A DNA stretch of 64,000 nucleotides from Candidatus Micrarchaeota archaeon. GTDB lineage: Archaea > Micrarchaeota > Micrarchaeia > Burarchaeales > JAKAKT01. The notes beneath the pieces are model-generated. The model had not been told where the DNA came from. It did no database searches and saw only the letters and a list, made by a program, of their open reading frames with translations. The DNA is taken from the NCBI GenBank assembly GCA_021813385.1, contig JAKAKT010000090.1, positions 2,867 through 66,866 of the forward strand, in the 5' to 3' direction. This document shows, one piece after another, positions 1 to 43,164 of this stretch. Every line of letters begins with the position of its first letter. Positions within the stretch are counted from its first letter, which is position 1. The translations under genes and the position numbers were made by a program.

Positions 1-7
1 GCGGAGT

Positions 8-1532: not shown

Positions 1533-1593
1533 TTAATGACCGTAGTTCTATTATGATACTAAAGTATAAATACTTACGCGTCTACAATAAATA

Positions 1594-1953
1594 TTGAGAG
1601 ACCAAAGTATCCTACGGGATACGGTGGTCTTATTGAATAAGAGCTACGAGTGGATTAGTTTGCTGGTTTCCGAGGGCACGCTGGAGATTTTGAAGTATCT
1701 CGCAGAGCGAGATGTGGGACACTTTAAGGAGCTACGGAGCCTCAAAAACTTTCGCACAAAAAGGAATTTTTCATCCAACACCATCTCGCTTCGAATAAAA
1801 GAACTTGTGGGTTATGGCGCAATAGAACGGACTATCTCTGACAGTAAGGGTCGGAATCTTGTTGCTTACAGGATAACCGATGCTGGGCGTAAATGTATAG
1901 AACTTGCTGACAAATTTGACGACGAACTTTCGGTGGTTTTGAAGAAAAAATAA
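1594..1953 (+). CDS. HxlR-type winged-helix transcriptional regulator
   Basis: 119 aa. The NTISLRIKELVGYGAIER segment matches the HxlR recognition helix/wing pattern (LSxRLKELEEaGli). First gene of a tightly spaced three-gene + strand operon. Confidence 0.55.
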   Translation: MRDQSILRDTVVLLNKSYEWISLLVSEGTLEILKYLAERDVGHFKELRSLKNFRTKRNFSSNTISLRIKELVGYGAIERTISDSKGRNLVAYRITDAGRKCIELADKFDDELSVVLKKK

Positions 1954-1957
1954 TTGC

Positions 1958-2443
1958 TTGAAGGAATTAGACATGACATATAATATATTCATAAGCTACA
2001 GCTCAAAGGACCTCGAAGAAGCGAACAAAATCAAAACACTTATTGACCAAATTCCAGATGCACGGAGTTTTTTGGCGGAAACAAATTTACTTGTGGGCAG
2101 CTTAAGCCAGAATATCATTTCTGCGATACAACGGTGCGACATATTTGTAGTTCTTTATAGCAAGAATTCGCACAATTCAAGTTATGTCCAGCAGGAGATA
2201 GGAGCTGCGCGAATGAGCAACAAGCTAATTCTTCCGATAGTTCTTGACCCAGAAACCAAGCCTGACGCAATGATAAAAGAAATTGGTTATCTCGCTTTCT
2301 ATGACTCAACAAAAAGGCATGAAGAAATGAAAAAACTATACGACCACATTCTAAACGGAGCCAGGCAAAAGGCAAACAATCAAACGGTTCTCGGGCTTGC
2401 GCTGCTTTTGGTTTTGGCTGGCATCGCATCTGAAAAACATTGA
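1958..2443 (+). CDS. TIR-domain protein with C-terminal transmembrane helix
   Basis: N-terminal YNIFISYSSKDLEEANKI is the classic TIR strand-1/helix-A start. SSYVQQEIGAA matches the TIR catalytic-Glu block (S-x-W/Y-C/V-x-x-E-L/I). C-terminal VLGLALLLVLAGIA is hydrophobic. A 4-nt gap separates it from the upstream regulator. Confidence 0.7.
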   Translation: MKELDMTYNIFISYSSKDLEEANKIKTLIDQIPDARSFLAETNLLVGSLSQNIISAIQRCDIFVVLYSKNSHNSSYVQQEIGAARMSNKLILPIVLDPETKPDAMIKEIGYLAFYDSTKRHEEMKKLYDHILNGARQKANNQTVLGLALLLVLAGIASEKH

Positions 2444-2450
2444 AGGTAAG

Positions 2451-3359
2451 ATGATGGGTAAATCTCGTAAAAAGTCAAGAGAGAAACGAGTTAAGATTAG
2501 CCAACTGACGTTCCCAAAACCAGAAAAGAACTTCGTCAATGCATATCGAAATCTCACGTATCAGCATGTTATTTCCGAGCTTAAGAAGATTGAATCCACG
2601 AAAAAGACCAAACCGCCTCAGTTTGAAGAAGAAAAAAAGTATTTGGTGCAGAGTTACTCATCACAAAGTCCAGACGAGATTCAGATTGAAGACGATGACG
2701 GCACGTATTTTCCAAAACCAATTCCCTTACCTTCTGCCTTGTTCGTTCAGTTTGCTGAACCGCACGTATTGATTACTGATTGGAGCGAGGACGTTAAATC
2801 GTGGTATCATTTCCAAGAGCTTATACAGGAATTGGAAAAGCAGGCCTTCGTTTCGTATTTCCAAGGCCTTTATTATGCTTGTTTCATGTGTTCGGTTGGC
2901 TGTCTGGAGTATATTATGAAATATGAATACATACGGAAAACGCATGATGAAAGTATCTTACAAAACCAAACGTTTGGAACGATGCTAAAAAAACTGACGG
3001 ACATCAATCTCGAAAAATACAGGGAGGATTTGGAACTTGTTAATGGGATTCGCAATGGATTTTTCCATCTTAACACTGACAAACTAAAAAATTCGATTGT
3101 CGAATTGAGGACAAAACGCTACAAAAATGTAAAAATTAATACTTTAGATATGGGGACAGACCGATTAACGACTCAAACGATGGATAGAGAATACCACAAA
3201 GATACATTCGACATTCCAGATAATAAGGACATGAGCAAAATCAGTCACCATGTTTACTGCCTACTTAACAAGATTACGAATGAGTTATATGGTCCGAAAC
3301 AGCAGGCCTCATTTATCAAAGAATGCATTAGAGACTATGAAACTCGATACATGGGATAG
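2451..3359 (+). CDS. hypothetical protein with putative HEPN (DUF4145/Apea-like) domain; basic N-terminus
   Basis: 302 aa. TFGTMLKKLTDINLEKYREDLELVNGIRNGFFHLN carries an Rx4H motif (R-N-G-F-F-H) in the context typical of DUF4145-type HEPN (L..iR..gN..aH). Lys/Arg-rich N-terminal tail. Start placed at ATG 2451, 7 nt after the TIR stop, rather than the overlapping 2397. Confidence 0.45.
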   Translation: MMGKSRKKSREKRVKISQLTFPKPEKNFVNAYRNLTYQHVISELKKIESTKKTKPPQFEEEKKYLVQSYSSQSPDEIQIEDDDGTYFPKPIPLPSALFVQFAEPHVLITDWSEDVKSWYHFQELIQELEKQAFVSYFQGLYYACFMCSVGCLEYIMKYEYIRKTHDESILQNQTFGTMLKKLTDINLEKYREDLELVNGIRNGFFHLNTDKLKNSIVELRTKRYKNVKINTLDMGTDRLTTQTMDREYHKDTFDIPDNKDMSKISHHVYCLLNKITNELYGPKQQASFIKECIRDYETRYMG

Positions 3360-3402
3360 GCACACAAATAGGAAATGGAGAGAGCACTATACGGCTTCCC
3401 GC

Positions 3403-4560
3403 TCAATAAAACGCTGTCTCCTCCTCGAAAATTTTTCCATCACTGGTGACGAATTTGAGTTTTAGGTAAGGTGTTTTCGAAGAATCAAGAGGACACCCAG
3501 ATAAGGAAAGCGAACCGAAGTTATATATTATGTCTTCGTGTTCGAAGCTTCCTAATCCCAACGTGGTGCGGGAGTAATCTTGTTTCTTAACGGTGAAAGT
3601 TTTAGTGCAGGAAGTCGTTTGAGTTTCATAAATTCCATAACCGGTCTTTTCTATTATGCTTATCGTTGCTGTTCCATCCGCTGTTGACGTAGAACCTTTT
3701 TCGTTTTGGAGAATAAAATATGCCGCCAATACATTTCCCTGTTTTGATGCGTATAATGTCTTTATTCCGGTTGGCGGGAAGATGTAATTTTTGAGTTGTA
3801 GGCAACTTTCTTTCATTTGACTGTTTGTTATTCGGTTACACGCATCCTCGTCGAATATCAGATTATTATTAACGGAATACGTAACGTAATTGGAGTAGCA
3901 AACATCCTTGTTGGTCACCTGGTCGTAATAACCTTTAGCTTCGTAACTAATCTCCCGCATCGTGCCGCAGATGAAATAGTTATTTCTTATAAACGCAACT
4001 CCGAGATAACAGTTTGACAAGTAATACGGGTCCATGATTTCGTCGCACACATCGGTATTATTTTTCTGAACCGCCATAGAGACGTATTTGCTGGTATAGC
4101 AGGCTCCTACCTCTTTTTCAATTTCGTCTTTACTCATCTTCTCGGAGTTGTAGAGGTTTATACACTTGTCTTTAGTGCAAAAACCCACGTAGCACGTCAT
4201 CCCTGTCCCACATGTTGTTCCGTTCAAGACTTCGTGCTTACACTCTAAACTCGTAGTCTCACAGTAATCGCGAGTGCAGAGGTTTCCGTCGTCACAGCTT
4301 TCCGGGCATTTTTTGCATTTGCTTATATCGGTGACAGTCGTGTTGTCTGGACACGTATATGTAGGGCATTTCGAGAGGTCCATAACCGAAGTGCCGTCAG
4401 GGCAGATATATGTTTTTTGGCATTCACTTAAGTTCTTGACAACGCTACCGTCCGGGCATTCGTAGGTTTTAATAGGTCCAGTAGGGGCTTGTTGTTGAGT
4501 TGAACAACCAAATATGCCAAACGCCAAGACCAGAACGGCGAGTAGGTAAAGTGATTTCAT
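3403..4560 (-). CDS. cysteine-rich secreted lipoprotein
   Basis: Signal peptide with FGIFGCS lipobox. Three tandem ~17-aa repeats Y-x-CPDG-x-V-x-x-LS-x-C. A CPESCDDGNLCTRDYC...CKHE module is shared with the 54499-56700 protein. Confidence 0.65.
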   Translation of the reverse strand: MKSLYLLAVLVLAFGIFGCSTQQQAPTGPIKTYECPDGSVVKNLSECQKTYICPDGTSVMDLSKCPTYTCPDNTTVTDISKCKKCPESCDDGNLCTRDYCETTSLECKHEVLNGTTCGTGMTCYVGFCTKDKCINLYNSEKMSKDEIEKEVGACYTSKYVSMAVQKNNTDVCDEIMDPYYLSNCYLGVAFIRNNYFICGTMREISYEAKGYYDQVTNKDVCYSNYVTYSVNNNLIFDEDACNRITNSQMKESCLQLKNYIFPPTGIKTLYASKQGNVLAAYFILQNEKGSTSTADGTATISIIEKTGYGIYETQTTSCTKTFTVKKQDYSRTTLGLGSFEHEDIIYNFGSLSLSGCPLDSSKTPYLKLKFVTSDGKIFEEETAFY

Positions 4561-5528
4561 GAGCGCACCTTTTTTGTCATTGCCTGGATAAGAACATAGG
4601 GCCGTAAACCATCGTCCACGGTGAAATATCTCAATTTCTCCCTATTCTTAACTCCAACAGCAATGTAATCCTTCCCAAAGTTTAGCGAGATTATTTCTTT
4701 CGGCAAGATTTGAATATTTTTGAAGCTTCCTCTAAACAGGAGCTTGCTGTTAGTTATGGATAAACTTCCGGCATCAAGTTGTTTTACCGAATGGGTCGGT
4801 TCCGATTGACCTTGTGACCCACCCAGAAATACTCCTTTTGAAACTCGGACCCCCGCGTAACCGGTTGAATAACTCCGGCCTACTCTCTCTTCGAGGAGGG
4901 CCGCTGATTCGGAGTAATAGACATTCTCGTCTTTTTCTAAAACGATACCTTGCGTGTTATCGATGGACTGAAAGGTCACGTTAAGGTCTATCTTATCGAT
5001 ACCGTCTTCTTTTTTGGATACCATTTCGTCTAAAATCTCGACGATAGGGTTGTTTTTTCCCTTTCCGAAAACAATGAGTTCGTTGGAATAGAAAACACGC
5101 CAATCGTATAAGGTTTCTTTAAAATTCTGGTTTTTTGTTTTTATTCTGAACTTATCTTGCCCGAATTCGCTTTTACCGATTGGGATATACTCGGTGTTAC
5201 AAACGGAACAACCGATTATCTGTTGACTCGTTAGCCCAAACAAGCCCTTTTTTGTCTGAACTTTTACCTGTCCTTCCTTACAAAAAACACATTTGTTAAA
5301 CAAGATTCCCTCGGGCATTTCTTTATCAGTTTGGAGTTTTACTGGGTTTGCCGAGGTTTCTTCAGGCGCGAGTGGCGTCAGAACCCTCCATTTATAAAGA
5401 AACCCGAAGATTCCCATGATAAACAAAACGAACCCGATGAAGATTGGAGCCGTAAGGAAACCGAATAATAAAAGCCACCAGCGATACTTTATTGCAAAAT
5501 TCTGTAATTTTGCAGACCCCTGATACAA
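4557..5528 (-). CDS. membrane protein with zinc-ribbon and possible PH-like C-terminal domain
   Basis: Two N-terminal TM helices, then CVFC...CSVC (zinc-ribbon spacing). C-terminal beta-rich region (SLSITNSKLLFRGSFKNIQILPKEIISLNF). 4-nt overlap with the upstream Cys-rich lipoprotein gene. Confidence 0.55.
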   Translation of the reverse strand: MYQGSAKLQNFAIKYRWWLLLFGFLTAPIFIGFVLFIMGIFGFLYKWRVLTPLAPEETSANPVKLQTDKEMPEGILFNKCVFCKEGQVKVQTKKGLFGLTSQQIIGCSVCNTEYIPIGKSEFGQDKFRIKTKNQNFKETLYDWRVFYSNELIVFGKGKNNPIVEILDEMVSKKEDGIDKIDLNVTFQSIDNTQGIVLEKDENVYYSESAALLEERVGRSYSTGYAGVRVSKGVFLGGSQGQSEPTHSVKQLDAGSLSITNSKLLFRGSFKNIQILPKEIISLNFGKDYIAVGVKNREKLRYFTVDDGLRPYVLIQAMTKKVRS

Positions 5529-5602
5529 TTGTTCACCCCACGTTAAAGTTAACGAAGTTTAAGGGTTTTAAGCTTTTAGCCTCTTCCGCGTTTGTGAGGT
5601 GT

Positions 5603-6151
5603 TCAGAAGGCGCTCGGTTCCGAGATATTCGACTTCATTAGTTTCTCGCGGATAGGCGACGGTAGGAAAAACAAGGTGGCAGAGCGGCCCAGCGCTTCCT
5701 CCCGTTTCGAAACCCAACCCAAGCCCACGAAGCCGTTCAGGACCCGGATTATTGTCGTATAGGCGGGTATCTGGACTCCGTCTTTCCTGTATCCCGCCAC
5801 TATTTCTTCCGCCTTGCGACGGTCTAAAGTCGCTAAATCGATTGTCTCCTTGTCGGTTTCTATGCTCGTGGAAGAAGGCTTTTTCGGCTTTTTTGCTGGG
5901 ATGAACATTCCCCCTGTTTCTTCTACCGGTATGGAACGAATGTTTGCGACGGTGCGCATACGAAGCTTGCCGTCCTCGTGGTCCCGGATTACGCGGGTGG
6001 CGAGCCTGAAGTAGACCTGCATCGAATTAATGGCGCAACGAGCGCTGTATAGCTCCCAAATAACCTGTTGCTCGATGTGAGCAAGCGCTTCCCATTGAAA
6101 CTCCGAAGGTTGTTTCGAGGTTGGATTCGATTCTGACGCTTTTTTGACCAT
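5603..6151 (-). CDS. hypothetical protein (island-associated)
   Basis: 182-aa ORF in the AT-rich island, divergent from the integrase. No recognisable motif. Confidence 0.4.
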   Translation of the reverse strand: MVKKASESNPTSKQPSEFQWEALAHIEQQVIWELYSARCAINSMQVYFRLATRVIRDHEDGKLRMRTVANIRSIPVEETGGMFIPAKKPKKPSSTSIETDKETIDLATLDRRKAEEIVAGYRKDGVQIPAYTTIIRVLNGFVGLGWVSKREEALGRSATLFFLPSPIREKLMKSNISEPSAF

Positions 6152-6447
6152 ATAAAACCCGTTTACTTTTGTATTGCATAGTATTTCATTAGATAGCCTT
6201 ATAAATGTTTACATTTATATTAGTTAACAGGAGACAACGCAACACAATGAAAGACAAAATATGCGAACGCTCCGGAAGTGATTGAGATGGATGACAAGGC
6301 CAAACTCTTGCCAAAAAGAAGAGAGAACCGGGAATTGTTTGTCGACAAAAGAACCCGCTTAAGCGCGGTAAGGAGATTTTGCGAAATGCATCGGATAAAC
6401 ATTCAGGAAACCGAGGATGTGCTCAAAATTTTCAAGTGAGGGAGAAG

Positions 6448-7674
6448 ATGACCAAGGCAAATATCTACGGAAAGGATTTCGAGAAGGAAGTCGAGAGAAT
6501 GCTGGGCACGTTGAGCGAAGCTAACAGGAAGCCGCTCATCGGATACGTAGAACACAATCGGCAGAGAGGCGTTACATTCCAGCGCTTATACAAGATTGTC
6601 ATTAACATAAGGACATTCATAAATCGCGGTCAGGTCAGGGATATCCGCCGGACCGACGCGGGGGCCGTGAAGGAATTCTTCAACAGCACCGAGTCGCAAG
6701 GCTGCTCGATTGAAACGCTGCGGGACTACAAGATTGTCCTTTCCGGGTTTTATCGCTGGCTTCACGGCATAAAAGGGCAAACGCTGCCCCCGGAAATGGA
6801 GTTCCTTGAAGGCAGGCAATTCAAACACGTCAAGAAAAGCGGACCGGTGCTCACGGAAGAGGACATAAGACGGATGATTGATGTCTCGCTTACGCTCCGG
6901 GACAAGTGCTTTATCACGCTCCTATGGGAATCTGGCGGGCGAATCGGGGAGATACTCGGGATGCAACGAAAAGACGTGCTGGCAGAAAACAAGGACAAAC
7001 GGGAATTCCGCCTTTATTTGGATGGGAAGACCGGCCCGAGGGAGATACTGGTAGTCGATAAGTGGGGATATGCCGACCAATACCTAAACGGGTTCGTTGG
7101 AGATAGCAAAACCTCCCTGTTTTGCACAAGACACCGCGCACACGCGACTTACCCCGCGTTCAGGAAAATGCTGACCGAGACGGCAAAACGGGCGGGAATA
7201 GACAAGAAAATCAATCCGCACTGGTTCCGCCACAGCCGGGCGACCTGTTTCGCGGAGGCCGGGATGTCCCCGATGCATATGGTCCCGTATATGGGCTGGT
7301 CCAACGGCACCAAGATGATTGGGACCTACACCCACCACTCGGCCCGCTCCGCAGATAATACGATTCGCTTGCTCCACTCGGACAACAGCGAGGAATTCAT
7401 GCGGAAGAACTTCGGCGAATTGGACAGTTGCGAAAGCAGGGCGAACCGCGTCGCCGAGGAAGAACTTCTCGACAGGTTCTTCCAAAAATACGGGGGCAGG
7501 ATAATCCAGCGGTTCGTCGAAAGCTATCAGGAGCTTGAAACCTACTCGAACGCGCCTTTAACAAATAAGAAAGATGCTCCGGCCGGGATTTTCAAACCCC
7601 TAGGTTTTCACCGTTTTTTCTTTGGGGTTGATCCAGACCTTTCTTTTTCCCAAAAAGAAAGGGAAGGATTTTGA
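6448..7674 (+). CDS. tyrosine recombinase / phage-type integrase
   Basis: HWFRHSRAT (HxxR box II) and TYTHHS (catalytic Tyr) lie near the C-terminus. Start chosen at MTKANIYG rather than the upstream M at 6379. A long C-terminal tail overlaps a tRNA on the opposite strand. Confidence 0.75.
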   Translation: MTKANIYGKDFEKEVERMLGTLSEANRKPLIGYVEHNRQRGVTFQRLYKIVINIRTFINRGQVRDIRRTDAGAVKEFFNSTESQGCSIETLRDYKIVLSGFYRWLHGIKGQTLPPEMEFLEGRQFKHVKKSGPVLTEEDIRRMIDVSLTLRDKCFITLLWESGGRIGEILGMQRKDVLAENKDKREFRLYLDGKTGPREILVVDKWGYADQYLNGFVGDSKTSLFCTRHRAHATYPAFRKMLTETAKRAGIDKKINPHWFRHSRATCFAEAGMSPMHMVPYMGWSNGTKMIGTYTHHSARSADNTIRLLHSDNSEEFMRKNFGELDSCESRANRVAEEELLDRFFQKYGGRIIQRFVESYQELETYSNAPLTNKKDAPAGIFKPLGFHRFFFGVDPDLSFSQKEREGF

Positions 7675-9182: not shown

Positions 9183-9716
9183 ATGGCTTACAACGGGCCT
9201 GAACAGCGCAAAGCGAACTGGCCAATCGCAACTTTCAGAAAAATTGGCGAAACTAGTTTCGCCAAGCCAGAGGAAAGTGGGGGAGGGGTATGCCTGGAGT
9301 TTTCCCGGCGCTGCTACATGCTCGTAGAAACTGCTCGAACGCGACTGCGAGAGGACGTCAAAGGACTCGCGGATGGCAAAATCCCTGAGATTGAAGGGAT
9401 AGCCCGGGATGCGTCCGACATTCAAGCGGTTGTTTCAAAAGTTAGAATATTGTGTTCTCAGGTCAAGGAAAATTTGAAAGTTAGAAGAGACGACACGCTG
9501 GAATTTGTGTATAACCGAAGGAGCGGCAAAATTTACGCGATTATTGAGTATTCGACTCCGTACGAAGTGAATGTTGGGGCTTCCGAAGTTGGGGCCGTCG
9601 TGTCGCTTACTGGAGGACAAACGGTCTCTGCGAGTTTTATGCTTAAAGATGAAGATACCATAACCACATTGAAGGAACTTGATAGAATGCTGCCGTGTCC
9701 TAGAATTTCCGACTGA
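9183..9716 (+). CDS. hypothetical protein
   Basis: 177-aa ORF with no recognisable motifs. Upstream hairpin-rich GC island. Confidence 0.4.
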   Translation: MAYNGPEQRKANWPIATFRKIGETSFAKPEESGGGVCLEFSRRCYMLVETARTRLREDVKGLADGKIPEIEGIARDASDIQAVVSKVRILCSQVKENLKVRRDDTLEFVYNRRSGKIYAIIEYSTPYEVNVGASEVGAVVSLTGGQTVSASFMLKDEDTITTLKELDRMLPCPRISD

Positions 9717-9793: not shown

Positions 9794-10150
9794 ATGCGGC
9801 CCAAGCGACCAGGGGCTGTGAAGCAGCTCTTAATGCTCATAGACGAGTTTAGGTGCCAGCGCTGCCATCTTGACCTATCTAAATTTCCAGAGCTTATACA
9901 ATTGCACCATATGATAGACCGCGAGATTCTCTGGCGGGCGAGGAGGGACGGGCTGCAGAGGCAGTTCCACGAGATGAGGAGAAACATCGAATACCAGCAG
10001 ATACTCTGCCCTGCCTGCCATGCGACAGTGCATGAATGCCGGGAAAGGAACTATTTCTTCCCGAACTACAACCTCAACACTTCTGGGAACAACGTGAAGC
10101 TCGCCCTCGACAGCCAGATGAGGATGAAAGTGAGAGTGAGGGAACGATAG
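9794..10150 (+). CDS. HNH endonuclease family protein
   Basis: CQRC ... LHHMIDRE ... N ... CPACHATVH: CxxC / HH / CxxCH arrangement of an HNH nuclease. TATA-like TTTAAATA about 37 nt upstream. Confidence 0.6.
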   Translation: MRPKRPGAVKQLLMLIDEFRCQRCHLDLSKFPELIQLHHMIDREILWRARRDGLQRQFHEMRRNIEYQQILCPACHATVHECRERNYFFPNYNLNTSGNNVKLALDSQMRMKVRVRER

Positions 10151-10206
10151 ATTCCCTCACCGAACACTATTTATATTTTTAAAGCGAAGTTTTTCATGGG
10201 GGAAAC

Positions 10207-11928
10207 ATGAAGCTTCTTTTCGAGGAACCGGCCTGCACAACCTGTGGCGCGTGCCTTTCCGTATGCCCAAAGAACCCGAAATCCCTAAACCTCTTGAAAT
10301 GCAGGCACTGCCCTCCTGAAAGCGCCGGCTGCAAGCCCGCCTGCCCGAGGGGCGCGATAAAGGAGTCGAACGGGTTCCTGTTTATTGATTCCGAGGAATG
10401 CGACGGGTGCGGGAAGTGCGCGAGGCAATGCTCAAAAGGCGCGATAGAAATCGTTGAGGATAAGGCAATCAAATGCGACGCCTGCCTCGGGAAGCCGAAG
10501 TGCATCGACTACTGCCCAGAGGAAGCGCTCAGGCTCCTCAAGGAAGAAGAGGGGATTCTCGGCTGGAGGGTAAGCGGGGAGAAGGCGGGATATTCCGTGG
10601 GGATACCACGGCTCTCGCGCGAGGAAGAGGGGATAGTTAACGAGATTTGCGCAAGATTCAGGGAAAACTCGAAGAAAGGCGAGTTCGGGGGCCGGGAGGA
10701 TGCGAAGTCCGAGCTTGAGGGAATTCTAACTGGTTATTGCAAGGATTCCGGGCTCATGATGGAAACCGACCAGTTCGATTACCTCTCGAAAATAACGCTG
10801 ATGCAGGTCTGGGGTTTTGGGCCGCTTGACCCAATGCTCGCGGATGACTCGCTCGAGGAAATTGCAGTCGTGGGGTTGGGAAAGCCGGTTTATGTTTATA
10901 AGCGGGGCGAAGGGTGGCTTGAGACGGATTGCTCTTTCACTTCCCAAGAGGTTTTTGTGAATACGGTAAATAAGATGGCGAGGCCCCTTGGAAGGAGGCT
11001 CGCCTACCAAACCCCGAGAATAAATTCCGTCCTGCCTGATGGCTCGAGGCTCCACGCATCGATGCCGCCAATATCGCAGCTCGAACTGACCATTCGTAAG
11101 TTCAGGGCCAATCCAATCTCTGCTCCAGAGCTCGTCTCGCTCGGGACCTTTTCCCCGGAGTCCCTCGCCTTCCTCTGGCTCGCGATGAAAGTGGACACCT
11201 CGATTCTTATCGCAGGGAACACGGCGAGCGGGAAGACGAGCACCCTCAATGCTCTCTTTTCCTTTATCCCGCTCGAAGAGCGCGTGCTCATCACCGAGGA
11301 GACCCCTGAAATAAACATACCGCATAAGCACAGGGTTTCCCTGCTCGCGAACACAGAACTCGGGATAGGGATGGGCGAGCTTGCTTCGGACAGCCTGAGG
11401 ATGAGGCCTGACCGGCTTATTGTTGGCGAGGCAAGGACTGCGGGGGAGGCAAAGGCGCTTCTGGATGCGATAACGAGCGGGCAGGCGAGAGGGAGCTATG
11501 CGACATTCCATGCGCACTCGGCGAAAGAGGCGGTCGCGAGGATGCGCGCTCTCGGCGCGCCTGAAACCGACATCGCGTCAATCGGGCTCATAGTGATACA
11601 GAAAAGGCTTGGGGGAAGCGACAAGGGCAAGGAAGCGAGACGGGCCCTCGAGATTGCAGAAGTGAGAATGAACGGGGGCGCTGTTGAGGCAATCACGATA
11701 TATGGATATGACTACAAGACCCGCTCGCTCAAGAGGACCAAGAATCCTTCCGCAGTGGAGGAAGAGGTCATGAATGCTCTCGGGTTTGACGGGAAAATGC
11801 TCAAGAAAGAGCTTTCAGACAGGTCGAAATTCCTATGTGGGCTCGCCAAGAGGAAAACGGGCTTTTTCGAAACAGTCGTCGCAATACAGAACTATGACAG
11901 GCTGCTGGGGGGATGGTTTGATAGATGA
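10207..11928 (+). CDS. type IV pilus/archaellum-family secretion ATPase (FlaI/TadA/PilB-like) with N-terminal tandem 4Fe-4S ferredoxin domain
   Basis: Walker A GNTASGKTSTLNALF, then ITEETPEI and the GEARTAGEA His-box region typical of GspE/FlaI ATPases. The N-terminal ~110 aa hold four Cys clusters: CTTCGACLSVCP, CRHCPPESAGCKPACP, CDGCGKCARQC, CDACLGKPKCIDYCP. Confidence 0.8.
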   Translation: MKLLFEEPACTTCGACLSVCPKNPKSLNLLKCRHCPPESAGCKPACPRGAIKESNGFLFIDSEECDGCGKCARQCSKGAIEIVEDKAIKCDACLGKPKCIDYCPEEALRLLKEEEGILGWRVSGEKAGYSVGIPRLSREEEGIVNEICARFRENSKKGEFGGREDAKSELEGILTGYCKDSGLMMETDQFDYLSKITLMQVWGFGPLDPMLADDSLEEIAVVGLGKPVYVYKRGEGWLETDCSFTSQEVFVNTVNKMARPLGRRLAYQTPRINSVLPDGSRLHASMPPISQLELTIRKFRANPISAPELVSLGTFSPESLAFLWLAMKVDTSILIAGNTASGKTSTLNALFSFIPLEERVLITEETPEINIPHKHRVSLLANTELGIGMGELASDSLRMRPDRLIVGEARTAGEAKALLDAITSGQARGSYATFHAHSAKEAVARMRALGAPETDIASIGLIVIQKRLGGSDKGKEARRALEIAEVRMNGGAVEAITIYGYDYKTRSLKRTKNPSAVEEEVMNALGFDGKMLKKELSDRSKFLCGLAKRKTGFFETVVAIQNYDRLLGGWFDR

Positions 11929-13645
11929 GCTCGCAGATTCTTTCCCGCAGTTTCGTTTTTTTTCTGAAGCTGGCCTGAAAAAAACATCCGAGAGCCTGAA
12001 GCTCGCGGGGCTTCGAGCTAAACCGGGCGGGTATCTCTCTTTCTCGCTCTCCCTATCGCTCGCAGTCTTTATCCTTTCCCTCCTTTTTCTCCTCTTGTCG
12101 TTCGAGCTCTTGCTCGCCATCGCTTTTTCGCTAATTGTTTTCGCTCTCGCTTATCTTTTCCTCCTCGGGCTCCCCTCGATTCTCGCCAAAAGAAGGGCGC
12201 AGGGGATTGAATCCGACCTCCCAATCGCTCTACGCTCAATCGCCACTGAACTCGCTGTCGGGGTCTCTTTCGAGAAATGCCTCGCACACGCAGCACAATC
12301 CGGCTATTCGATAGCGCCTGAAATGGGGGAAGCGATGGCTGAGATTGAGCATGGCGGCTCGAACGTCCCCGATGCCCTCAGGGGAATCGCGTCAAGAGTG
12401 GATTCCTTGGTCGTGAAGCGCGCTGTCCAGCAGATGATAGAGGCATATGGCCACGGCTCGAAGGGTGAGGGGCTGAGGCATCTCGCCGATGAGTTGATTG
12501 AGGCTCAAAAAGCAGGAACCCGCGAGCACAGCGCGAGAATCGCCTTCCTCGGGCTCCTCTTCGTTGCAGTCTCCTGCATCGTCCCGGCTCTCTTCCAGGC
12601 TTATGCAGTCGTCGGCTCGGCATTCCTCTCCTCTGCTTTCTCTGCTTCGGACATCTGGTTCGCATATGCCATCGGGTTCCCGCTCGCTGGAAGCGCGGTC
12701 CTCTTGGCAATCTACGAGAAAACCCCGAAAAATCTTGGGAGGAGAAAAGGGGGGATTCTCTCAAAAAAACAAGTGGTTCTCGCGGATAAAACTCTTGGGA
12801 GAATGGGGATTGGCGCGGGTTTCGGGAAAGCGCTAGTTTTTCTTATTGGCGCGGCAGTTCCCATTGCCCTCATTCTGCTTTTCGGGAGCTTCGCACTCAG
12901 ATACGAGCCGTGGATTGCGCTTCTTCCCTTTGCAATCCCGGTCCTGGTTTATTTTTTAATGGTAAGGAAAATTGAAGCGAGGACTGCCGAGATTGAGGCG
13001 AGGCTGCCGGATGCCCTGCTCCATGCTTCCTCATTTTCGAAAGGAACCCCGCTTGACAAAATCATTAAATCGATTGCTGATTCGGGATACGGCCCCCTCT
13101 CCATTGAGTTCGCGGCTGCGCACAGCCAGATAAAGTCAGGGGCTGACGTGCCTTCTGCGCTAAGTTCTATCTCGGAAGAGAACGATTCGGTCCTCCTCTC
13201 TCGCGCAACTGAACTCCTCTCGCAGGCCTATTCGGCCGGCGGGGAGATGAGCATGGCGCTCAAGGAGACCGCCGCGGACATGTTCTCGATTTTCTCGATT
13301 GTGAGAGAAAGGGAATCGACCTTAGCGCTGCAGAAATACACGCTCCTTTTTGGGGGGGCGCTCCTCGTCCCCCTCGTTCTGGGGGCGATAACGAACGTGA
13401 TATCGAAACTCGGGGGGCAGGGGATGGAATTGATTTCGAGCATGAGCTCTCTTGAAAGGGCCAGCCTCATTTCTGCTTCAATTGGCGCTGCCCAGATTTA
13501 CCTAGTAATATACTCCTTGCTCGCGAGCCTGTTCATAGCCCAGCTTGGGGGAAGCTGGAGGAATTTCATCGTGTATTTCGTGATGATGGCGCCGGTCTCG
13601 CTATTCGCTTACAATCTGGCGATGAGCGTACATGTGCTTGGGTAG
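11894..13645 (+). CDS. type IV pilus assembly membrane platform protein (FlaJ/TadC/PilC-like, two T2SS-F domains)
   Basis: Polytopic membrane protein with duplicated cytoplasmic helical domains. Immediately downstream of, and overlapping, the secretion ATPase. In-frame ATG at 11894; the upstream extension to 11774 is rejected. Confidence 0.7.
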   Translation: MTGCWGDGLIDELADSFPQFRFFSEAGLKKTSESLKLAGLRAKPGGYLSFSLSLSLAVFILSLLFLLLSFELLLAIAFSLIVFALAYLFLLGLPSILAKRRAQGIESDLPIALRSIATELAVGVSFEKCLAHAAQSGYSIAPEMGEAMAEIEHGGSNVPDALRGIASRVDSLVVKRAVQQMIEAYGHGSKGEGLRHLADELIEAQKAGTREHSARIAFLGLLFVAVSCIVPALFQAYAVVGSAFLSSAFSASDIWFAYAIGFPLAGSAVLLAIYEKTPKNLGRRKGGILSKKQVVLADKTLGRMGIGAGFGKALVFLIGAAVPIALILLFGSFALRYEPWIALLPFAIPVLVYFLMVRKIEARTAEIEARLPDALLHASSFSKGTPLDKIIKSIADSGYGPLSIEFAAAHSQIKSGADVPSALSSISEENDSVLLSRATELLSQAYSAGGEMSMALKETAADMFSIFSIVRERESTLALQKYTLLFGGALLVPLVLGAITNVISKLGGQGMELISSMSSLERASLISASIGAAQIYLVIYSLLASLFIAQLGGSWRNFIVYFVMMAPVSLFAYNLAMSVHVLG

Positions 13646-13686: not shown

Positions 13687-13935
13687 ATGGAAAATATACG
13701 CATGACCATCGGGCTCTCCGGGATTCCCGCTCACGTGCTCGAGAGGGCGGTCGAGGAAGGGCTCTCGGGCTCAAGAAATGACGTGATAAGGCAGGCGCTT
13801 GTCCTTTATGGAGAGAAGCTCGGATTGCTTGACAACGAGGGACCTCTTGATGAAGATGCGGCTGGCGCAATCGAGGCGGCAAGAGCCACAAAGAGCATAT
13901 CCCACAAAGAACTGAAAAAGAGACTGGGGCTATGA
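13687..13935 (+). CDS. type II antitoxin (RHH/RelB-ParD-like)
   Basis: 82-aa protein. 4-nt overlap with the downstream RelE/ParE toxin gene. Confidence 0.5.
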   Translation: MENIRMTIGLSGIPAHVLERAVEEGLSGSRNDVIRQALVLYGEKLGLLDNEGPLDEDAAGAIEAARATKSISHKELKKRLGL

Positions 13936-14180
13936 GCATAGAGTGGAAGGAGCCCGCGCTTCGCGACCTTGCGAGCTTGCACAGGACCTATCACATAGCG
14001 GTTGTCAAGAGAGTAGAAGTTGCAGAAGGAAACCCATCGCATTACCTTGAGCGCCTAGTCGATAGGCCTTATTTCAAATTAAGGGTCGGTGATTACCGGG
14101 TGTTCATCGAGTGGATGAAACCGAAACGCATCATTGTCCTGCGCATCTTACATCGCAAGAAAGCGTATAAGAGAACGTGA
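13932..14180 (+). CDS. RelE/ParE family toxin
   Basis: KLRVGDYRVFIEW...IIVLRILHRK matches the RelE/ParE signature (YRLRVGDYRiiY...I.rIgHRkd). Confidence 0.7.
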   Translation: MSIEWKEPALRDLASLHRTYHIAVVKRVEVAEGNPSHYLERLVDRPYFKLRVGDYRVFIEWMKPKRIIVLRILHRKKAYKRT

Positions 14181-19084: not shown

Positions 19085-21802
19085 TCAGCTGCCCTTAATC
19101 TTGAATATCCTGACTGGCTGGATATTGAGCCCGCCCGGGTCGCCTTCTGGGTAGACGAGCTCGAACCCATCGATTTTTCCAAGGAAGAAGCCCCTGTAGA
19201 AATTGGAGTCATATGCCTTGCCCTTCCTGTCTGGGAGCCCGGACTGGCCGTCGTACCAGAGTTCTGGGTAGGTTGAAAGGAACCTGTCGTACGGCTTACC
19301 TTCTATGGAAACTCGGTCCATGTAGAGGGGTATCGCCCGATTTACCGTAACAACGCCCTGGCTGATATCGAAATCATTGGGCAGGTTTGATTGATTGACA
19401 TTGAACAGCACCATGACTGTTTTTCCGCCGACGTTGGATTGGCCGACGCAATAGTTCACGCCGAATGAAGAGAAGGCAAGAGGGAGGTACTGGCCGACTT
19501 GTCCTTTGATTATGCAGCGCTGGTTCAAAGCGGGCTCGGCAGGCACGTAGATATATTCGAAATCATACAGTTGGTCACAGGTGGATGTCCCTGGGCCAAC
19601 GCTCATGTTAGTCTGGTTGTTATAAACGCAGGAAAGGTATTTCAGAGCGCCCCATTTGGAAACCAGGTCTATGTCGAACAATACGTGGGTCGCGTTGAAC
19701 TTTTGCATCGTTTGCTTAAGGTCTTCCGGAGTGCCCTCCACGAACACGTCTGCCACCATCAAATCCATGGTCACATTCGAATGCTCGTTCCTAGTGACGG
19801 TCCTCCTGTTTCCGAAGAAGTTGGTCCAATGGCCGTAATCCCACCAGGACATCACCGCATCATCTTCGTGCACATTCTTGCTTATCCAATCCATTGAATC
19901 CAGCCAGTAGGCTGGGATGCGGGTGCAGTACACATAGAGGCTGAGCTGCTTGTCAATTCCTGCATTTTGCTCTGCCATAAGCTTCGAGCAGTCCCCGGGC
20001 TGGAATGTGAGCGCCGTCGGCATAACGTCAGCAAGCGGGTCGTAGAATCCTGCGAGAAGCAAACCCGCGATGAAAACCCCGTAAACGATTTTTCCAGTTT
20101 TCTTTTCCTTCTCATCGAACCCCCTAAGGAAAAGGATGTAGAGTTCCCCAAGCAAAACGGCAATTGCTATGATGAGCATAAAACCAAATTGCACGGTGTA
20201 TTTGCTCTTCTGCAATCCAACGAAAGATATCGGGAATATCATGAAGATGAAAAGCAAAGCCAGCTTGCTATTCCTCAAAGCAATTGCTAGAACAAGGACT
20301 ATGAAAGTGGCAACCAGCAGAAACGGAACATAGATGCTATTGCCCCCTATTGGGTTTGGGAGCGGTATGCCTAGGGGGATGGATATTGGATTTCCATTCT
20401 CCGACCAGAGCGACAGCTCTGACACTGCGCTTCCCAAAAGGCCAAAAGAGCGTTTCGCTTCCCCGGCGAATTCGGCCGGCGAGAGGGGGTGCTCCTCTGC
20501 GACAGTCTGCATGAGGGCGCTGTTCGGCTTTGCGAACCCAACTGCGCTCATGGCGTACTGGAAAACCACCCCCCCGATCGGGGTAACCAGCAGCAGCACA
20601 AAACCGGCTATTATCAGCAGCGCGGACATTGTGACTCGCGTGTCGAATTTTTTGGAATTGTGCTCTATGAAATAGAGTGCGGCAATTACGGCAAGAGAGG
20701 TTATGGGCAACAAAATCGTCGGAGGAATCGTAATTGAGTCCTGGCGGGGCACGTCTCTGACGACATAGGATAGGAGGACGAAAGCCAGTATGATTGCGTT
20801 TATCTCCAGTAAGGATTTCAGCGTTTCCATCTTATAGAATCTCTTAAATGACTCGAAAACAGCAAAGCCGAAGAAAATAAGGGTGACAACGGAAGTGTAT
20901 GCGGAGCCGATGTAGGTCGACATGAACGCAATACCTGCCAGCACCGCAAGGCGCTTGTCGCTCCGATTGACTGCCATGGCATAAGAGGAAAGGAAGAGGA
21001 ACGTCGAGAAAACCCCCCAGGGGGTTATCTCGGCCTCGCCAGCCACAAACTTCTCTATGAGCCTCGGGGTTATCGCCATGAACCCGGCAGCCACGACTCC
21101 GCTCAGGTGCCCGTACTCTTCCTTGACGAGCATATATGCGAAGAAGCAGATGAGGGCACCGACAACTGGCGGGTAAACATTCGCGATTGTGGAGAGCAGC
21201 AGGTTGTTATAGCTGCTTGAAATCCCGGAAAAAGCCGTGTAAGTGTTGTACCAGCCGGATTCCAAGTAGCCCGTAAGCACTATTGTGCCGTGGCCTCCTG
21301 GGCCGGGATACCAGGCGGTATTGTCGACAAGCGGAACATGGCCGACCACAAGAAGTTGCCTTGCTATGTACATGTAGAAATATGGGTCAAATTCGTAGAA
21401 CACCGGACCGATGCTCTGAACCCTGATGAAGAATGCGAGCAGCATCATCAGCAGGATAACCAGCGGGATTGAATCCCGATTGAACGAAAAAATGGGTTGC
21501 GGAACCTTCATCCTGAACCAATCGGGCTCATTCCTTGCTTCGTAGAAAAACCAGGCCATCCCGATTGCCGTGGTTATTATTATTCCAGCTATGGTCAGCG
21601 TGAAAGAATATGGGAAGCCGATTGTATTTAGGGTGTAAGTTACCACTGTAGGGACTATCAGCCCTAAGGTGAACCCGAAGCAAATGATTTCAAACAGCGA
21701 GAGCTTTGAATTCCGAAGCAGGGGCAGGGCAATCGCTACCCCAGGGATGATTATGGACAGGAATATGGGTATTGCTGCGATAATGAACTCTGAGACCCCC
21801 AA
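19085..21802 (-). CDS. aglB: archaeal oligosaccharyltransferase AglB (STT3 family)
   Basis: WWDYGHW (WWDYG) motif. ~13 TM N-terminal domain plus soluble C-terminal domain. 905 aa. Confidence 0.85.
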   Translation of the reverse strand: MGVSEFIIAAIPIFLSIIIPGVAIALPLLRNSKLSLFEIICFGFTLGLIVPTVVTYTLNTIGFPYSFTLTIAGIIITTAIGMAWFFYEARNEPDWFRMKVPQPIFSFNRDSIPLVILLMMLLAFFIRVQSIGPVFYEFDPYFYMYIARQLLVVGHVPLVDNTAWYPGPGGHGTIVLTGYLESGWYNTYTAFSGISSSYNNLLLSTIANVYPPVVGALICFFAYMLVKEEYGHLSGVVAAGFMAITPRLIEKFVAGEAEITPWGVFSTFLFLSSYAMAVNRSDKRLAVLAGIAFMSTYIGSAYTSVVTLIFFGFAVFESFKRFYKMETLKSLLEINAIILAFVLLSYVVRDVPRQDSITIPPTILLPITSLAVIAALYFIEHNSKKFDTRVTMSALLIIAGFVLLLVTPIGGVVFQYAMSAVGFAKPNSALMQTVAEEHPLSPAEFAGEAKRSFGLLGSAVSELSLWSENGNPISIPLGIPLPNPIGGNSIYVPFLLVATFIVLVLAIALRNSKLALLFIFMIFPISFVGLQKSKYTVQFGFMLIIAIAVLLGELYILFLRGFDEKEKKTGKIVYGVFIAGLLLAGFYDPLADVMPTALTFQPGDCSKLMAEQNAGIDKQLSLYVYCTRIPAYWLDSMDWISKNVHEDDAVMSWWDYGHWTNFFGNRRTVTRNEHSNVTMDLMVADVFVEGTPEDLKQTMQKFNATHVLFDIDLVSKWGALKYLSCVYNNQTNMSVGPGTSTCDQLYDFEYIYVPAEPALNQRCIIKGQVGQYLPLAFSSFGVNYCVGQSNVGGKTVMVLFNVNQSNLPNDFDISQGVVTVNRAIPLYMDRVSIEGKPYDRFLSTYPELWYDGQSGLPDRKGKAYDSNFYRGFFLGKIDGFELVYPEGDPGGLNIQPVRIFKIKGS

Positions 21803-21879
21803 GCTAAGCTACCTCCCGGAAGCTACCTCATATTCTACGGATAAATATATAAAACGATGCGGGGTTTAACAGTGTCTTC

Positions 21880-22533: not shown

Positions 22534-22551
22534 CGGGTAAAGGGGTTTTGC

Positions 22552-23688
22552 ATGAACCGAATCCTTGTCTCCGGTGGTGGGCCGGCTGGATGCATTGCTG
22601 CCCGTTCTGCTGCGCTAAATGGAGGCAGGGTTTGCCTATACGAGGAGCACCGGCGGATTGGGGAACCGGTACAGTGTTCAGGGCTAATATCAAAAAAGGG
22701 CCTTGACTCAATCGGGGTCAATTATTCGGCGGCCCTGCTGAATGAGATTAGGGGGGCGGATGTACATGCTGGCGGAGCGTCGATGCGCATACTGGCAGGC
22801 GAAACGAAGGCATTCGTCCTGGACCGGGCGAATCTGGATTGCGCTTATGCTGAGGCGGCTGAGAAGGAGGGCGTGCGGATAGTTTTGGGAGAAAGGGCGC
22901 CACTTCATCCGTCTGGGGGGGAGATACTGATTGGTGCTGACGGGGTTTTTTCAAGAACTGCGGCTGCGAATGGGTTCCCTGAGCAGCGAAGGCTTGTCGT
23001 CTGCTACCAGAGAGAATTTACAAACGCAAAGCCGGCTGACAGGCGCCTTGTTTCGGTTTATCTGACTAAGCTTTCGCCTGGTTTCTTCGGGTGGGTTATC
23101 CCGATAAATGAAGAACGGGTGCGGGTGGGCCTCGGGGTTTCAAAAGGAGGGAACCCGAAAAGGCAGTTTGAGAAGTTCATAGGAAAGCTGAACGGGGTGC
23201 TCGATGGTGCAAAGCCGGATACGTCTCTTGCAGGATTCATCCCGCTATCCCCTCGAACCGAGACTGTGTCAGGGGACGTTATGCTCGTTGGGGATGCTGC
23301 TGGGCAGGTGAAGGCTCTTTCGGGCGGGGGCGTCTATTTTGGGTGTAGCTGCGCCTCAATAGCCGGGAAGGTGGCGGCTCTTCATCCGGAAAATTTATGG
23401 AGGTATGAGCAGGCGTGGAGGAGAGAATTCTCGCGCGACCTTCAGGTTCACGGGTTTTTGAGAGGCGCGCTCGATGCCATCCCGGAATTCGCCTTGGGCC
23501 TGGCAATCCGCGCAGGAGGCTTCCTTGGAGCCGACGGATTCCTCGTCAGGTACGGGGACATGGACAGGCCGAGCGAGATAGCCAGGGCATTTAGGGAGGA
23601 CTCGGCCTCGAGACTGGGGAAACGTTTTAATAACGTCGCATCAATATTTACGAGTAGTGAATTAGGTGGTGGCTCGAATGATCCCTAG
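22552..23688 (+). CDS. geranylgeranyl reductase family FAD-dependent oxidoreductase
   Basis: ILVSGGGPAGCIAARSAA dinucleotide-binding motif. Size and pattern typical of archaeal GGR. Confidence 0.75.
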   Translation: MNRILVSGGGPAGCIAARSAALNGGRVCLYEEHRRIGEPVQCSGLISKKGLDSIGVNYSAALLNEIRGADVHAGGASMRILAGETKAFVLDRANLDCAYAEAAEKEGVRIVLGERAPLHPSGGEILIGADGVFSRTAAANGFPEQRRLVVCYQREFTNAKPADRRLVSVYLTKLSPGFFGWVIPINEERVRVGLGVSKGGNPKRQFEKFIGKLNGVLDGAKPDTSLAGFIPLSPRTETVSGDVMLVGDAAGQVKALSGGGVYFGCSCASIAGKVAALHPENLWRYEQAWRREFSRDLQVHGFLRGALDAIPEFALGLAIRAGGFLGADGFLVRYGDMDRPSEIARAFREDSASRLGKRFNNVASIFTSSELGGGSNDP

Positions 23689-24370
23689 GCATGTGGCGAT
23701 AATACCTGACGGCAACAGGCGATGGGCGAAAGCGCACGGCAAGAGCCTTGTCGAGGGATACCTGGCGGGGATTGACAAGGCGAGCAAGACTCTGGGGTGG
23801 GGGAGGGACCTCGACGTAAAGGAGCTTACCTTCTGGGGCCTTTCAACTGAGAACCTTTCAAGAAATAAACTGGAGATTAGCACTCTAATGCGGCTTTTCG
23901 AACTTAAATTCAAGGAAGTCACTAGGGTTAGCGATTTCAAGGACAACGGCATTCGGTTCAGGGCTTTTGGGGACAGGGACCTGCTTCCTGCTGGCATCAG
24001 GAGGCATGTGAACACCCTGGAGGAATCCACTCGGGACCATTCCAACTATTTCGTGAACCTTCTACTTGGATACGGGGGGAGGTATGAAATAATCTCTGCA
24101 TGCAACGCCGCGATTAGCGATTATGAAGCAGGGCGGATAAAGGCTGTAGACGAGAAGAGCATCTCGCGTTATCTGCCAACAGGCGGGCTCACTGACCCTG
24201 ACCTGATAATCAGGACCTCCGGCGAGCAAAGGCTGTCCGGCTTCTTACCTTGGCATAGCGCGTATAGCGAATTCTTTTTCTCAAAGGCGCTCTGGCCCGA
24301 CTTCACGAAGGAGGAGCTGGGCAGGGCAGTCGATGATTACGGGGAGAGGAAGCGAAGGTTCGGCAGATGA
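23666..24370 (+). CDS. uppS: cis-prenyltransferase (undecaprenyl/ditrans,polycis-polyprenyl diphosphate synthase)
   Basis: HVAIIPDGNRRWA signature; RTSGEQRLSGFLPW near the C-terminus. Confidence 0.85.
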   Translation: MVARMIPRHVAIIPDGNRRWAKAHGKSLVEGYLAGIDKASKTLGWGRDLDVKELTFWGLSTENLSRNKLEISTLMRLFELKFKEVTRVSDFKDNGIRFRAFGDRDLLPAGIRRHVNTLEESTRDHSNYFVNLLLGYGGRYEIISACNAAISDYEAGRIKAVDEKSISRYLPTGGLTDPDLIIRTSGEQRLSGFLPWHSAYSEFFFSKALWPDFTKEELGRAVDDYGERKRRFGR

Positions 24371-24419
24371 AAGCATTGAGAATAATGAATAAAACCAGGG
24401 GCTCGCTCGGAATGGAAAG

Positions 24420-24773
24420 ATGAGAATAATAAACAAGACTAGGGGTTCAGCCGTAGAGGAGAACCCGATTATCGCCAACTCATTCTTCACTCGACTTCGC
24501 GGCTTGATGTTTCGGGCCAAATTTCCTAGAACGATGCTGTTTGTTTTTCCCGAGATTTCGATAAGGAGAAATTCGATTCACTCATTCTTCGTATTTTTCG
24601 AATTCGATGCCGTTTATTTGGATGAAGAAAAAAAAGTCATCGACATTTTCGAGCGAGTTAGGCCGTTTACGTTCTATATTGAGCCCAAAAAACCTTCGGC
24701 GTATCTTCTGGAGCTCGAGGCCGGGGCAGTGAAGAGATTGAAGATTGGGATTGGGGACCAGATTGAGTTTTGA
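24420..24773 (+). CDS. DUF192 family protein
   Basis: TRLRGLMFR motif of DUF192/COG1430. Size ~117 aa. Confidence 0.55.
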   Translation: MRIINKTRGSAVEENPIIANSFFTRLRGLMFRAKFPRTMLFVFPEISIRRNSIHSFFVFFEFDAVYLDEEKKVIDIFERVRPFTFYIEPKKPSAYLLELEAGAVKRLKIGIGDQIEF

Positions 24774-43158: not shown

Positions 43159-43164
43159 GTTAGG

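Follow-up and report, generated by a model that had tools for sequence, protein, structure and literature searches.

Why should the motor ATPase of an archaeal type IV filament system begin with a domain that resembles a polyferredoxin? This question is raised by a gene on a 64,000-nucleotide (nt) stretch of Candidatus Micrarchaeota DNA (assembly GCA_021813385.1, contig JAKAKT010000090.1), hereafter called the window. The gene encodes a FlaI/GspE2/TadA-type assembly ATPase with 16 cysteines ahead of its core, and it is followed by the gene of a TadC/FlaJ-like platform protein. An earlier note, made from the sequence, had described it as a pilus ATPase carrying a tandem 4Fe-4S ferredoxin domain. 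The evidence presented here supports a genuine and conserved fusion with a predicted nested four-cluster iron-sulfur (Fe-S) domain, for which control of the motor is the leading hypothesis.

The fused gene

The ATPase gene is one unbroken reading frame from its ATG, and the identical protein was found on six independently assembled contigs. Its start codon at position 10207 is well supported, since an A/T-rich TATA-box-like element is located 26–37 nt 5' of the ATG and homologs in independent assemblies have the same M-[KR]-L start in common. The cysteine-rich region is thus neither a separate upstream open reading frame (ORF) nor the product of a start-codon error, both of which the earlier note had considered. 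A scan for bacterial sigma-70 promoters and terminators gave background-level counts; its model is bacterial and not applicable to an archaeon.

Pfam T2SSE was matched by residues 241–468 (E = 2.9e-31, 108.9 bits compared to a cut-off of 24.9), while Fer4 families cover residues 3–109 of the same protein, with an E value of 1.6e-8 for Fer4 and scores above or near the cut-offs for Fer4_9, Fer4_7 and Fer4_6. The four cysteine groups that had been noticed in the first ~110 residues, before the N-terminal and RecA-like parts of the ATPase, were recovered as 16 cysteines within residues 1–113; in groups II and IV the spacing is extended (Table 1). All four are ferredoxin groups, but the exact spacing CxxCxxCxxxCP is present in group I only; group III ends in CS, and groups II and IV follow the patterns CxxCx6CxxxCP and CxxCx5CxxxCP.

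Table 1 Features of the ATPase-TadC locus and related genes in the window
Feature	Position	Strand	Basis
Small Cys/His-rich protein, 118 aa, HNH-like motif	9794..10150	+	tblastn, motif by eye
TATA-box-like element TTTATATTTTTA, putative archaeal promoter of the ATPase-TadC pair	10170..10181	+	read from sequence
Polyferredoxin-fused FlaI/GspE2/TadA-type assembly ATPase, 573 aa	10207..11928 (stop codon included)	+	ORF, Pfam, AlphaFold 2 (AF2), PDB matches
N-terminal four-cluster ferredoxin domain, residues 1-113, predicted 4 x [4Fe-4S]	10207..10545	+	
Cys group I: C10-x2-C13-x2-C16-x3-C20-P	10234..10269	+	sequence and alignments
Cys group II: C32-x2-C35-x6-C42-x3-C46-P	10300..10347	+	sequence and alignments
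Cys group III: C65-x2-C68-x2-C71-x3-C75, then S here, P in most homologs	10399..10431	+	
Cys group IV: C90-x2-C93-x5-C99-x3-C103-P	10474..10518	+	sequence and alignments
Linker ending in LGW motif (L118-G119-W120), start of the ATPase core	10546..10566	+	orthologue alignment
Walker A, G337-N-T-A-S-G-K-T344	11215..11238	+	G337, T339, G342, K343, T344 invariant
Asp/Glu box, E364-E-T-P-E368	11296..11310	+	E364, P367, E368 invariant
Walker B region, R400-P-D-R-L-I-V-G-E408	11404..11430	+	R400, P401, D402, R403, E408 invariant
His-box histidine H435	11509..11511	+	invariant
TadC/FlaJ-like platform protein, 583 aa, two T2SSF repeats in one polypeptide	11894..13645	+	Pfam, gene call
GGR - UppS - DUF192 block	22552..24773	+	Pfam, tblastn synteny, gene tables

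Fold and cluster ligation of the N-terminal domain

When modelled alone, the N-terminal domain reached a predicted local distance difference test (pLDDT) value of 89.7 and superposed over 108–119 of 124 residues on four-cluster Fe-S subunits. The superposition figures were 11.6 for HycB3 of the hydrogen-dependent CO2 reductase, 10.3 for PsrB/NrfC and 8.4 for FdnH. Because the superposition extends over the whole domain, the model identifies it as a nested four-cluster ferredoxin of the HycB/NrfC/DmsB type, in which groups I and IV and groups II and III build two sub-domains. The tandem ferredoxin proposed earlier was correct in that the domain is of a genuine Fe-S type, but the predicted fold is the nested one and not that of two clostridial ferredoxins in tandem. 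Sequence and model predict that four [4Fe-4S] clusters are bound.

In the nested scheme, cysteines 1–3 of group I ligate one cluster together with cysteine 4 of group IV (I1-3+IV4), and the other three clusters are held by IV1-3+I4, II1-3+III4 and III1-3+II4. Homologs with fewer cysteines allow this scheme to be compared with tandem ligation. Four homologs with 12 cysteines lack exactly II4 and III1-3, which is the ligand set of one nested-scheme cluster. Three others lack IV4 and I1 (one of them also I3), which belong to the ligands of a different cluster, and one homolog keeps groups I and IV alone. The 12-cysteine and 13–14-cysteine forms retain three complete clusters if ligation is nested but only two if it is tandem, and tandem ligation would leave orphan ligands in the reduced variants. 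Nested rather than tandem ligation is therefore supported indirectly by the sequences, and such cluster-wise loss is the behaviour expected if the cysteines ligate cubane clusters. Three-cluster versions comprise homologs P0070/P0072/P0079/P0094 and P0081/P0107/P0110 as well as loci L027, L044, L046, L050 and L056. An 11-cysteine type (P0097, P0103, P0106, P0114, P0118) has an irregular pattern that fits neither scheme cleanly.

Conservation and distribution of the fusion

At least 10 cysteines in the first 130 residues were counted in 60 of the 120 best database homologs; the others have 0–9, mostly 0–5. Each of the 16 cysteines is kept in 50–60 of the 60 homologs that bear the domain, and all 16 are invariant in a curated alignment of 29 sequences, which reaches down to 35% identity and includes stand-alone ferredoxins. 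The earlier note had named variable cysteines as a possible objection; the observed conservation speaks against it.

The distribution was also analysed at the level of loci, using one genome per GTDB species and the 80 best loci. With ORFs re-derived from the DNA, the N-terminal cysteine count is bimodal: 39 loci have 12 or 15–18 cysteines and 41 have 0–2. The named loci all belong to Candidatus Micrarchaeota/Micrarchaeia or Candidatus Iainarchaeum (Diapherotrites), the remainder being unclassified archaea. A second search, started from a distant member, likewise found the fused form named only in Diapherotrites/Iainarchaeum and Micrarchaeota. The fusion is thus conserved in related genomes. 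It had been called unusual, which holds for the superfamily in the searchable literature, but with 39 of the 80 best loci it is common within Micrarchaeota/Iainarchaeota.

Some short database entries are start-codon miscalls that hide the Fe-S domain. P0028, an ATPase entry of 467 amino acids, starts inside Cys group IV, and its own contig, L012 (3424–5085), encodes an ORF of 578 amino acids with the whole Fe-S domain and 16–17 cysteines. Gene callers sometimes cut the domain off, and its frequency in protein databases is therefore underestimated. Such mis-starts, together with precomputed Pfam Fer4 matches that are often 'faint', could be cited in favour of an artefact, i.e. an upstream ferredoxin gene mis-joined by an assembly or frameshift error, or a zinc-binding cysteine region mimicking ferredoxin spacing. 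We regard this explanation as extremely improbable, and at the sequence level the artefact and zinc readings are effectively excluded.

Relatives of about 1040 amino acids (P0307, P0313, P0321, P0322) carry other extra domains (PF23989 and the FtsK-like PF01580). One of them is named Candidatus Hydrothermarchaeales, and all represent further large additions to the ATPase family.

ATPase core and platform partner

The full-length AF2 model, calculated as a monomer, has a pLDDT value of 90.3 and a predicted template modelling (pTM) score of 0.73. Its ATPase part matches AfGspE2 (2OAP), FlaI (4II7/4IHQ) and TadA/CpaF (8RJF) with Foldseek E values of about 1e-30 to 1e-33 (about 3e-33 for 2OAP and 4II7) and template modelling scores of 0.63–0.73 over about 446 columns. 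Comparison with the sequences of the AfGspE2, FlaI and CpaF structures using phmmer yielded E values of 7.6e-43 to 1.8e-37. The residues of the Walker A and B motifs and of the Asp and His boxes that are marked in Table 1 are invariant across 66 orthologs. G119 and W120 of the LGW motif are also invariant in all 66, irrespective of the presence of the Fe-S domain, and pLDDT falls to 74 across the linker (residues 111–120). Based on sequence and model, the ATPase half is a member of the T2SSE secretion superfamily (GspE/PilB/FlaI/TadA/VirB11) and is predicted to be catalytically intact and to form a hexamer of the FlaI/GspE2/TadA type.

An identity as the archaellum ATPase FlaI/ArlI was considered and rejected, because the protein scores 199 bits against NCBIfam NF058587, below the equivalog cut-off of 550, and because archaellum operon genes (FlaH, archaellins, FlaF/G) were found neither in the window region nor in related loci, where only a TadC/FlaJ-like gene adjoins.

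The product of this adjoining gene matches Pfam T2SSF twice (E = 2.8e-16) and the ArlJ/FlaJ NCBIfam family weakly. As the earlier note had observed, the gene overlaps the 3' end of the ATPase gene; the overlap amounts to 35 nt. ATG 11894 is the likely start, supported by the gene call in L001 and by the ATG in the sequence, and is preferred over 11774, the start of the longest ORF. The ATPase is presumably translationally coupled to the platform protein. In most of 86 related loci TadC follows the ATPase, either as a single gene or split in two. A minimal archaeal type IV pilus system consists of ATPase, platform, pilin and class III signal peptidase, and the first two are represented by this pair. 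An apparent ATPase-TadC fusion of 1036 amino acids in L040 was dismissed as an ORF-extension artefact, as the ORF listing gives two genes of 463 and 566 amino acids.

Evolution and synteny

The gene order GGR-UppS-DUF192-ATPase-TadC, in which GGR stands for geranylgeranyl reductase and UppS for a cis-prenyltransferase, is common to loci with and without the Fe-S domain (tblastn across 86 loci, gene tables). Due to this conserved neighbourhood, the fused and domain-less forms are considered orthologs. Domain-less orthologs begin exactly at M-LGW, and tblastn synteny across the 86 loci revealed no separate ferredoxin or Fe-S ORF in domain-less loci. Since these orthologs manage without the domain, it is, as judged from the sequences, an accessory module outside the catalytic core.

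Mean identity to the window protein is 44.5% for the Fe-S domain, 47.7% for the ATPase core and 38.8% for TadC, and the values for domain and core are correlated (r = 0.83, 43 loci). The domain has diverged at the pace of the core and is better kept than TadC, which indicates that purifying selection acts on it and that it is not a recent replacement. A neighbour-joining tree calculated from the ATPase core shows the domain in all Iainarchaeum-type and basal Micrarchaeota sequences. Those that lack it fall into one large derived group and about three small ones, corresponding to about four loss events. From these sequence comparisons the fusion appears to be ancestral to one pilus-type locus of Micrarchaeota and Iainarchaeota, followed by repeated loss or by cluster-by-cluster trimming.

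Origin of the domain

A word-index search with the N-terminal domain alone (125 amino acids) gave 6 candidates, none of them significant. An exhaustive HMMER search with the same domain returned 72 cluster representatives at E ≤ 1e-10. The best 150 included 147 newly returned proteins, of which 10 have ATPase motifs and thus represent the fusion, 4 are probable fusion fragments and 133 are other proteins. Ferredoxins of less than 200 amino acids with 15–18 cysteines account for 71 of these 133. The nearest non-fused relatives are 16-cysteine ferredoxins of 130–180 amino acids. Three stand-alone proteins that were inspected have the same four-group layout, including the unusual group II pattern 'C.HC.PE.A.C...CP', and stand-alone relatives are 36–42% identical to the window domain. 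One of the three inspected proteins, P0142, is encoded by the last gene of an operon of porCDAB and two polyferredoxins (PorE/PorF position). These similarities suggest that the domain derives from electron-carrier ferredoxins. In Methanococcus maripaludis, PorF reportedly donates electrons to pyruvate oxidoreductase (PMC4902934).

An alternative to a control function is genuine electron transfer, in which a four-cluster chain (24 clusters per hexamer) would connect the ferredoxin pool with a partner, such as an acceptor in the membrane or at the surface, located at the base of the pilus, or an enzyme recruited to the motor. It might also take the form of an ATP-gated low-potential transfer like that of the nitrogenase Fe protein or the benzoyl-CoA reductase activators. 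In favour of it, the fold and the nearest relatives are all those of wire proteins (HycB3, AOR/WOR5 subunits, PsrB/NrfC, FdnH and the polyferredoxin at the PorE/PorF position). The cluster lost in the 12-cysteine variants is FS3; if it lies at the end of the chain, as in formate dehydrogenase-N, three clusters would remain in an unbroken row. Micrarchaeota are described as fermenters that use pyruvate:ferredoxin oxidoreductase and have type IV pili but no electron transport chain (PMC8561730). Such organisms would need electron sinks. However, the genes conserved beside the locus include no acceptor, hydrogenase, cytochrome or other redox gene, cofactor motifs are absent from TadC, a path from the cytoplasm across the membrane to the filament would have no known carrier, and the domain is dispensable in many lineages. 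A main role as donor for the syntenic GGR was also considered, as ferredoxin-dependent GGR is reportedly known in Methanosarcina. It was rejected, since GGR-UppS-DUF192 persists unaltered in lineages that lack the domain and two genes intervene.

Overall, electron transfer is judged to be unlikely. The more specific proposal that a ring of 24 [4Fe-4S] clusters on the hexameric motor performs it is very unlikely. In that case, ATP-driven motions would gate low-potential electron flow, as in the nitrogenase Fe protein or the 'archerase' activators, or electrons from fermentation would be handed to an acceptor at the pilus base. If true, it would connect the organelle by which a DPANN symbiont attaches with the disposal of electrons or with redox exchange between symbiont and host.

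Proposed function

The most likely model, which we put forward tentatively, is a motor gated by its clusters or by redox, with ATPase activity or coupling to TadC conditioned by cluster integrity or redox state. The Fe-S domain would act as an accessory N-terminal control module that folds only when its clusters are held and that may pass electrons to and from the pool of low-potential ferredoxins in this fermentative anaerobe. It would be tethered to the ATPase's N-terminal domain, which is expected to move in the ATPase cycle, and cluster occupancy or redox state could condition the packing of the N-terminal domain against the ATPase ring or TadC. Pili, which presumably serve attachment to surfaces or a host, would then be assembled under anoxic, reduced and Fe-S-replete conditions only. 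A comparable case is ABCE1, the activity of which depends on an Fe-S domain at its N-terminus.

Such a regulatory role is plausible and the leading hypothesis, but several points weigh against it. Regulation in general, and redox regulation in particular, is what we infer and not what was shown. The Fe-S sensors known to us (FNR, NsrR, IscR, SoxR, WhiB) hold one cluster per subunit, and the classical role of four-cluster proteins is that of electron wires. The gene tables of the window and related loci show neither a redox partner nor a regulator conserved near the locus. Many orthologs work without the domain, which could thus be nearly neutral. The structure is a monomer model that does not give the orientation of the domain relative to the hexamer or TadC, and the tree behind the reading of gain and loss is a rough one, built by neighbour joining and rooted at its midpoint rather than by maximum likelihood with support values. 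Fused genomes seem to derive from sediments and domain-less ones from acid mines and hot springs, a tendency read from the names of metagenome-assembled genomes alone.

The domain might also have a purely structural or mechanical role, which we consider somewhat unlikely. The clusters would then only scaffold a compact cap at the N-terminus, by which the ATPase is docked to TadC or the hexamer is stabilised, with redox being irrelevant. In ABCE1/Rli1, an N-terminal ferredoxin-like Fe-S domain is fused to an ATPase and its clusters are needed for mechanical function. The proposed cap, which would move with the ATP cycle, would resemble this arrangement. A structural similarity test of the N-terminal domain against the ABCE1-type Fe-S domain revealed no such similarity.

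If the Fe-S module does control the motor, as the gated-motor model proposes, this motor family would respond to a new kind of signal, namely redox state, oxygen or iron status. Motors of type IV filaments are an intensively studied group, and the inputs known to control them through the N-terminus are nucleotides or partner proteins. The fusion spans two sister DPANN phyla, which are hard to grow and whose biology is believed to rely on pilus-mediated attachment to surfaces or hosts. Domain-less and three-cluster orthologs provide natural controls, and the prediction is testable with recombinant protein.

Genomic neighbourhood

The GGR-UppS-DUF192 block is located directly 5' of the ATPase in most other Micrarchaeota/Iainarchaeota, but here the two are about 10.6 kb apart. 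The ATPase-TadC pair has left the block in the window as well as in L007, L009 and L020, the closest relatives of the window, and its present neighbours are a small HNH-like gene and argH. The HNH-like gene was found beside the ATPase in these closest relatives only, with identities of 88% (L007), 83% (L020) and 65% (L009) in tblastn. Its product had been called an HNH nuclease. The pattern CxxC...HH...N...CxxCH is indeed HNH-like by eye, but no significant Pfam or NCBIfam family match was obtained for the protein. It is preceded by an ORF of 177 amino acids (9183–9716) that has no matches.

The DUF192/COG1430 gene (24420–24773 in the window) is in most loci on the same strand and directly 5' of the ATPase, often with a gap of less than 100 nt. 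This adjacency was seen in loci L003–L086, with the Fe-S domain present or not, and is broken in the window. The gene may encode an unrecognised accessory component of the pilus-type system. Within 19085–24370 of the window, genes for an AglB/STT3 oligosaccharyltransferase (19085–21802, minus strand), GGR (22552–23688) and the cis-prenyltransferase UppS (23666–24370) are clustered. All three adjoin the ATPase-TadC pair in relatives, which suggests a conserved neighbourhood of surface glycosylation and pilus genes.

Two motif scans of the 64-kb window found no class III signal-peptide pilins, in agreement with the earlier note. The lack of adjacent pilins is typical of the gene family, since pilins occur within 6 kb only occasionally in related genomes; pilin-like ORFs were observed a few kb from the locus in L005, L022, L064 and L082. 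L006, a metagenomic contig whose ATPase is named Diapherotrites by NCBI, harbours a second system (2158–7564) directly 5' of DUF192 and the Fe-S ATPase system. It consists of a Peptidase_A24 prepilin peptidase, a T2SSE ATPase of 802 amino acids and two T2SSF genes, and such genomes can therefore hold two type IV filament machineries side by side. A second, distant ATPase match was found in L019.

A ParE toxin gene (13932–14180) and a small antitoxin-like ORF (13687–13935) lie between TadC and argH. This toxin-antitoxin pair looks like a recent insertion, because the distance from TadC to argH is only about 370 nt in L020, a 73%-identical relative. The first part of the window (1–7674) has a low G + C content (0.40–0.46 compared to about 0.52 elsewhere), contains lipoprotein-like ORFs, a TIR/ThsB-like protein (1958–2443) and a tyrosine integrase (6379–7674), and is probably an integrated element or defence island. 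The ATPase-TadC pair was rejected as cargo of this island, as its G + C content of 0.546 matches the rest of the window (the low-GC stretch being 1–6000) and as the pair lies beside argH without ParDE in L020. No tRNA gene was found in the window. Elsewhere, it encodes NrdD with an ATP-cone and a radical-SAM activase (40999–43884) as well as rubrerythrin (47053–47550). The class III anaerobic ribonucleotide reductase NrdD/NrdG and rubrerythrin mark the host as an oxygen-sensitive anaerobe.

Comparison with known systems

The N-terminal domain resembles the four-cluster ferredoxin subunits HycB3 (7QV7), AorA (8C0Z), the WOR5 Fe-S subunit (6X6U), PsrB/NrfC (2VPW), FdnH (1KQG) and the DmsB family. 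Those are free-standing subunits of oxidoreductases, whereas here the domain is fused to a motor ATPase and the locus contains no oxidoreductase. A further comparison is with the PorE/PorF polyferredoxins of the methanogen por operon: the closest stand-alone relatives have the 16-cysteine layout of the window domain, and one of them, P0142, is at the PorE/PorF position of such an operon. These, however, are separate small proteins in a redox operon. AfGspE2, FlaI and CpaF have the N-terminal domain and RecA-like C-terminal domain fold, the catalytic motifs and the pairing with a T2SSF platform gene in common with the window protein. These solved proteins lack an Fe-S domain, and their matches are limited to residues about 170–551.

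MshEN is the cyclic di-GMP-binding N-terminal domain of bacterial MshE/PilB/GspE-type ATPases. By analogy, the Fe-S domain may likewise be an accessory N-terminal signal or ligand module that controls assembly by a type IV pilus extension ATPase. Fold and ligand are unrelated (cyclic di-GMP versus Fe-S), and no sequence similarity was detected between the two.

The 2026 survey of archaeal systems mentions 'variable N-terminal domains' on type IV filament ATPases, but a ferredoxin domain on the ATPase is mentioned neither there nor in the 2016 census of archaeal type IV pili. The only Fe-S link in these two sources is AapX, an Fe-S protein of unknown function that is genetically tied to the Aap type IV pilus of Sulfolobus (bioRxiv 10.64898/2026.04.22.720090) and that is a separate protein. 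Full-text literature searches found no description of a polyferredoxin-ATPase fusion, while automated annotation reflects it (JGI 'CpaF family ATPase/ferredoxin', UniRef '4Fe-4S ferredoxin...'). The sequences are thus public and the architecture appears to be uncharacterised. Taken together, type IV filament ATPases with accessory domains at the N-terminus are familiar, and the Fe-S type appears to be a new addition to them.

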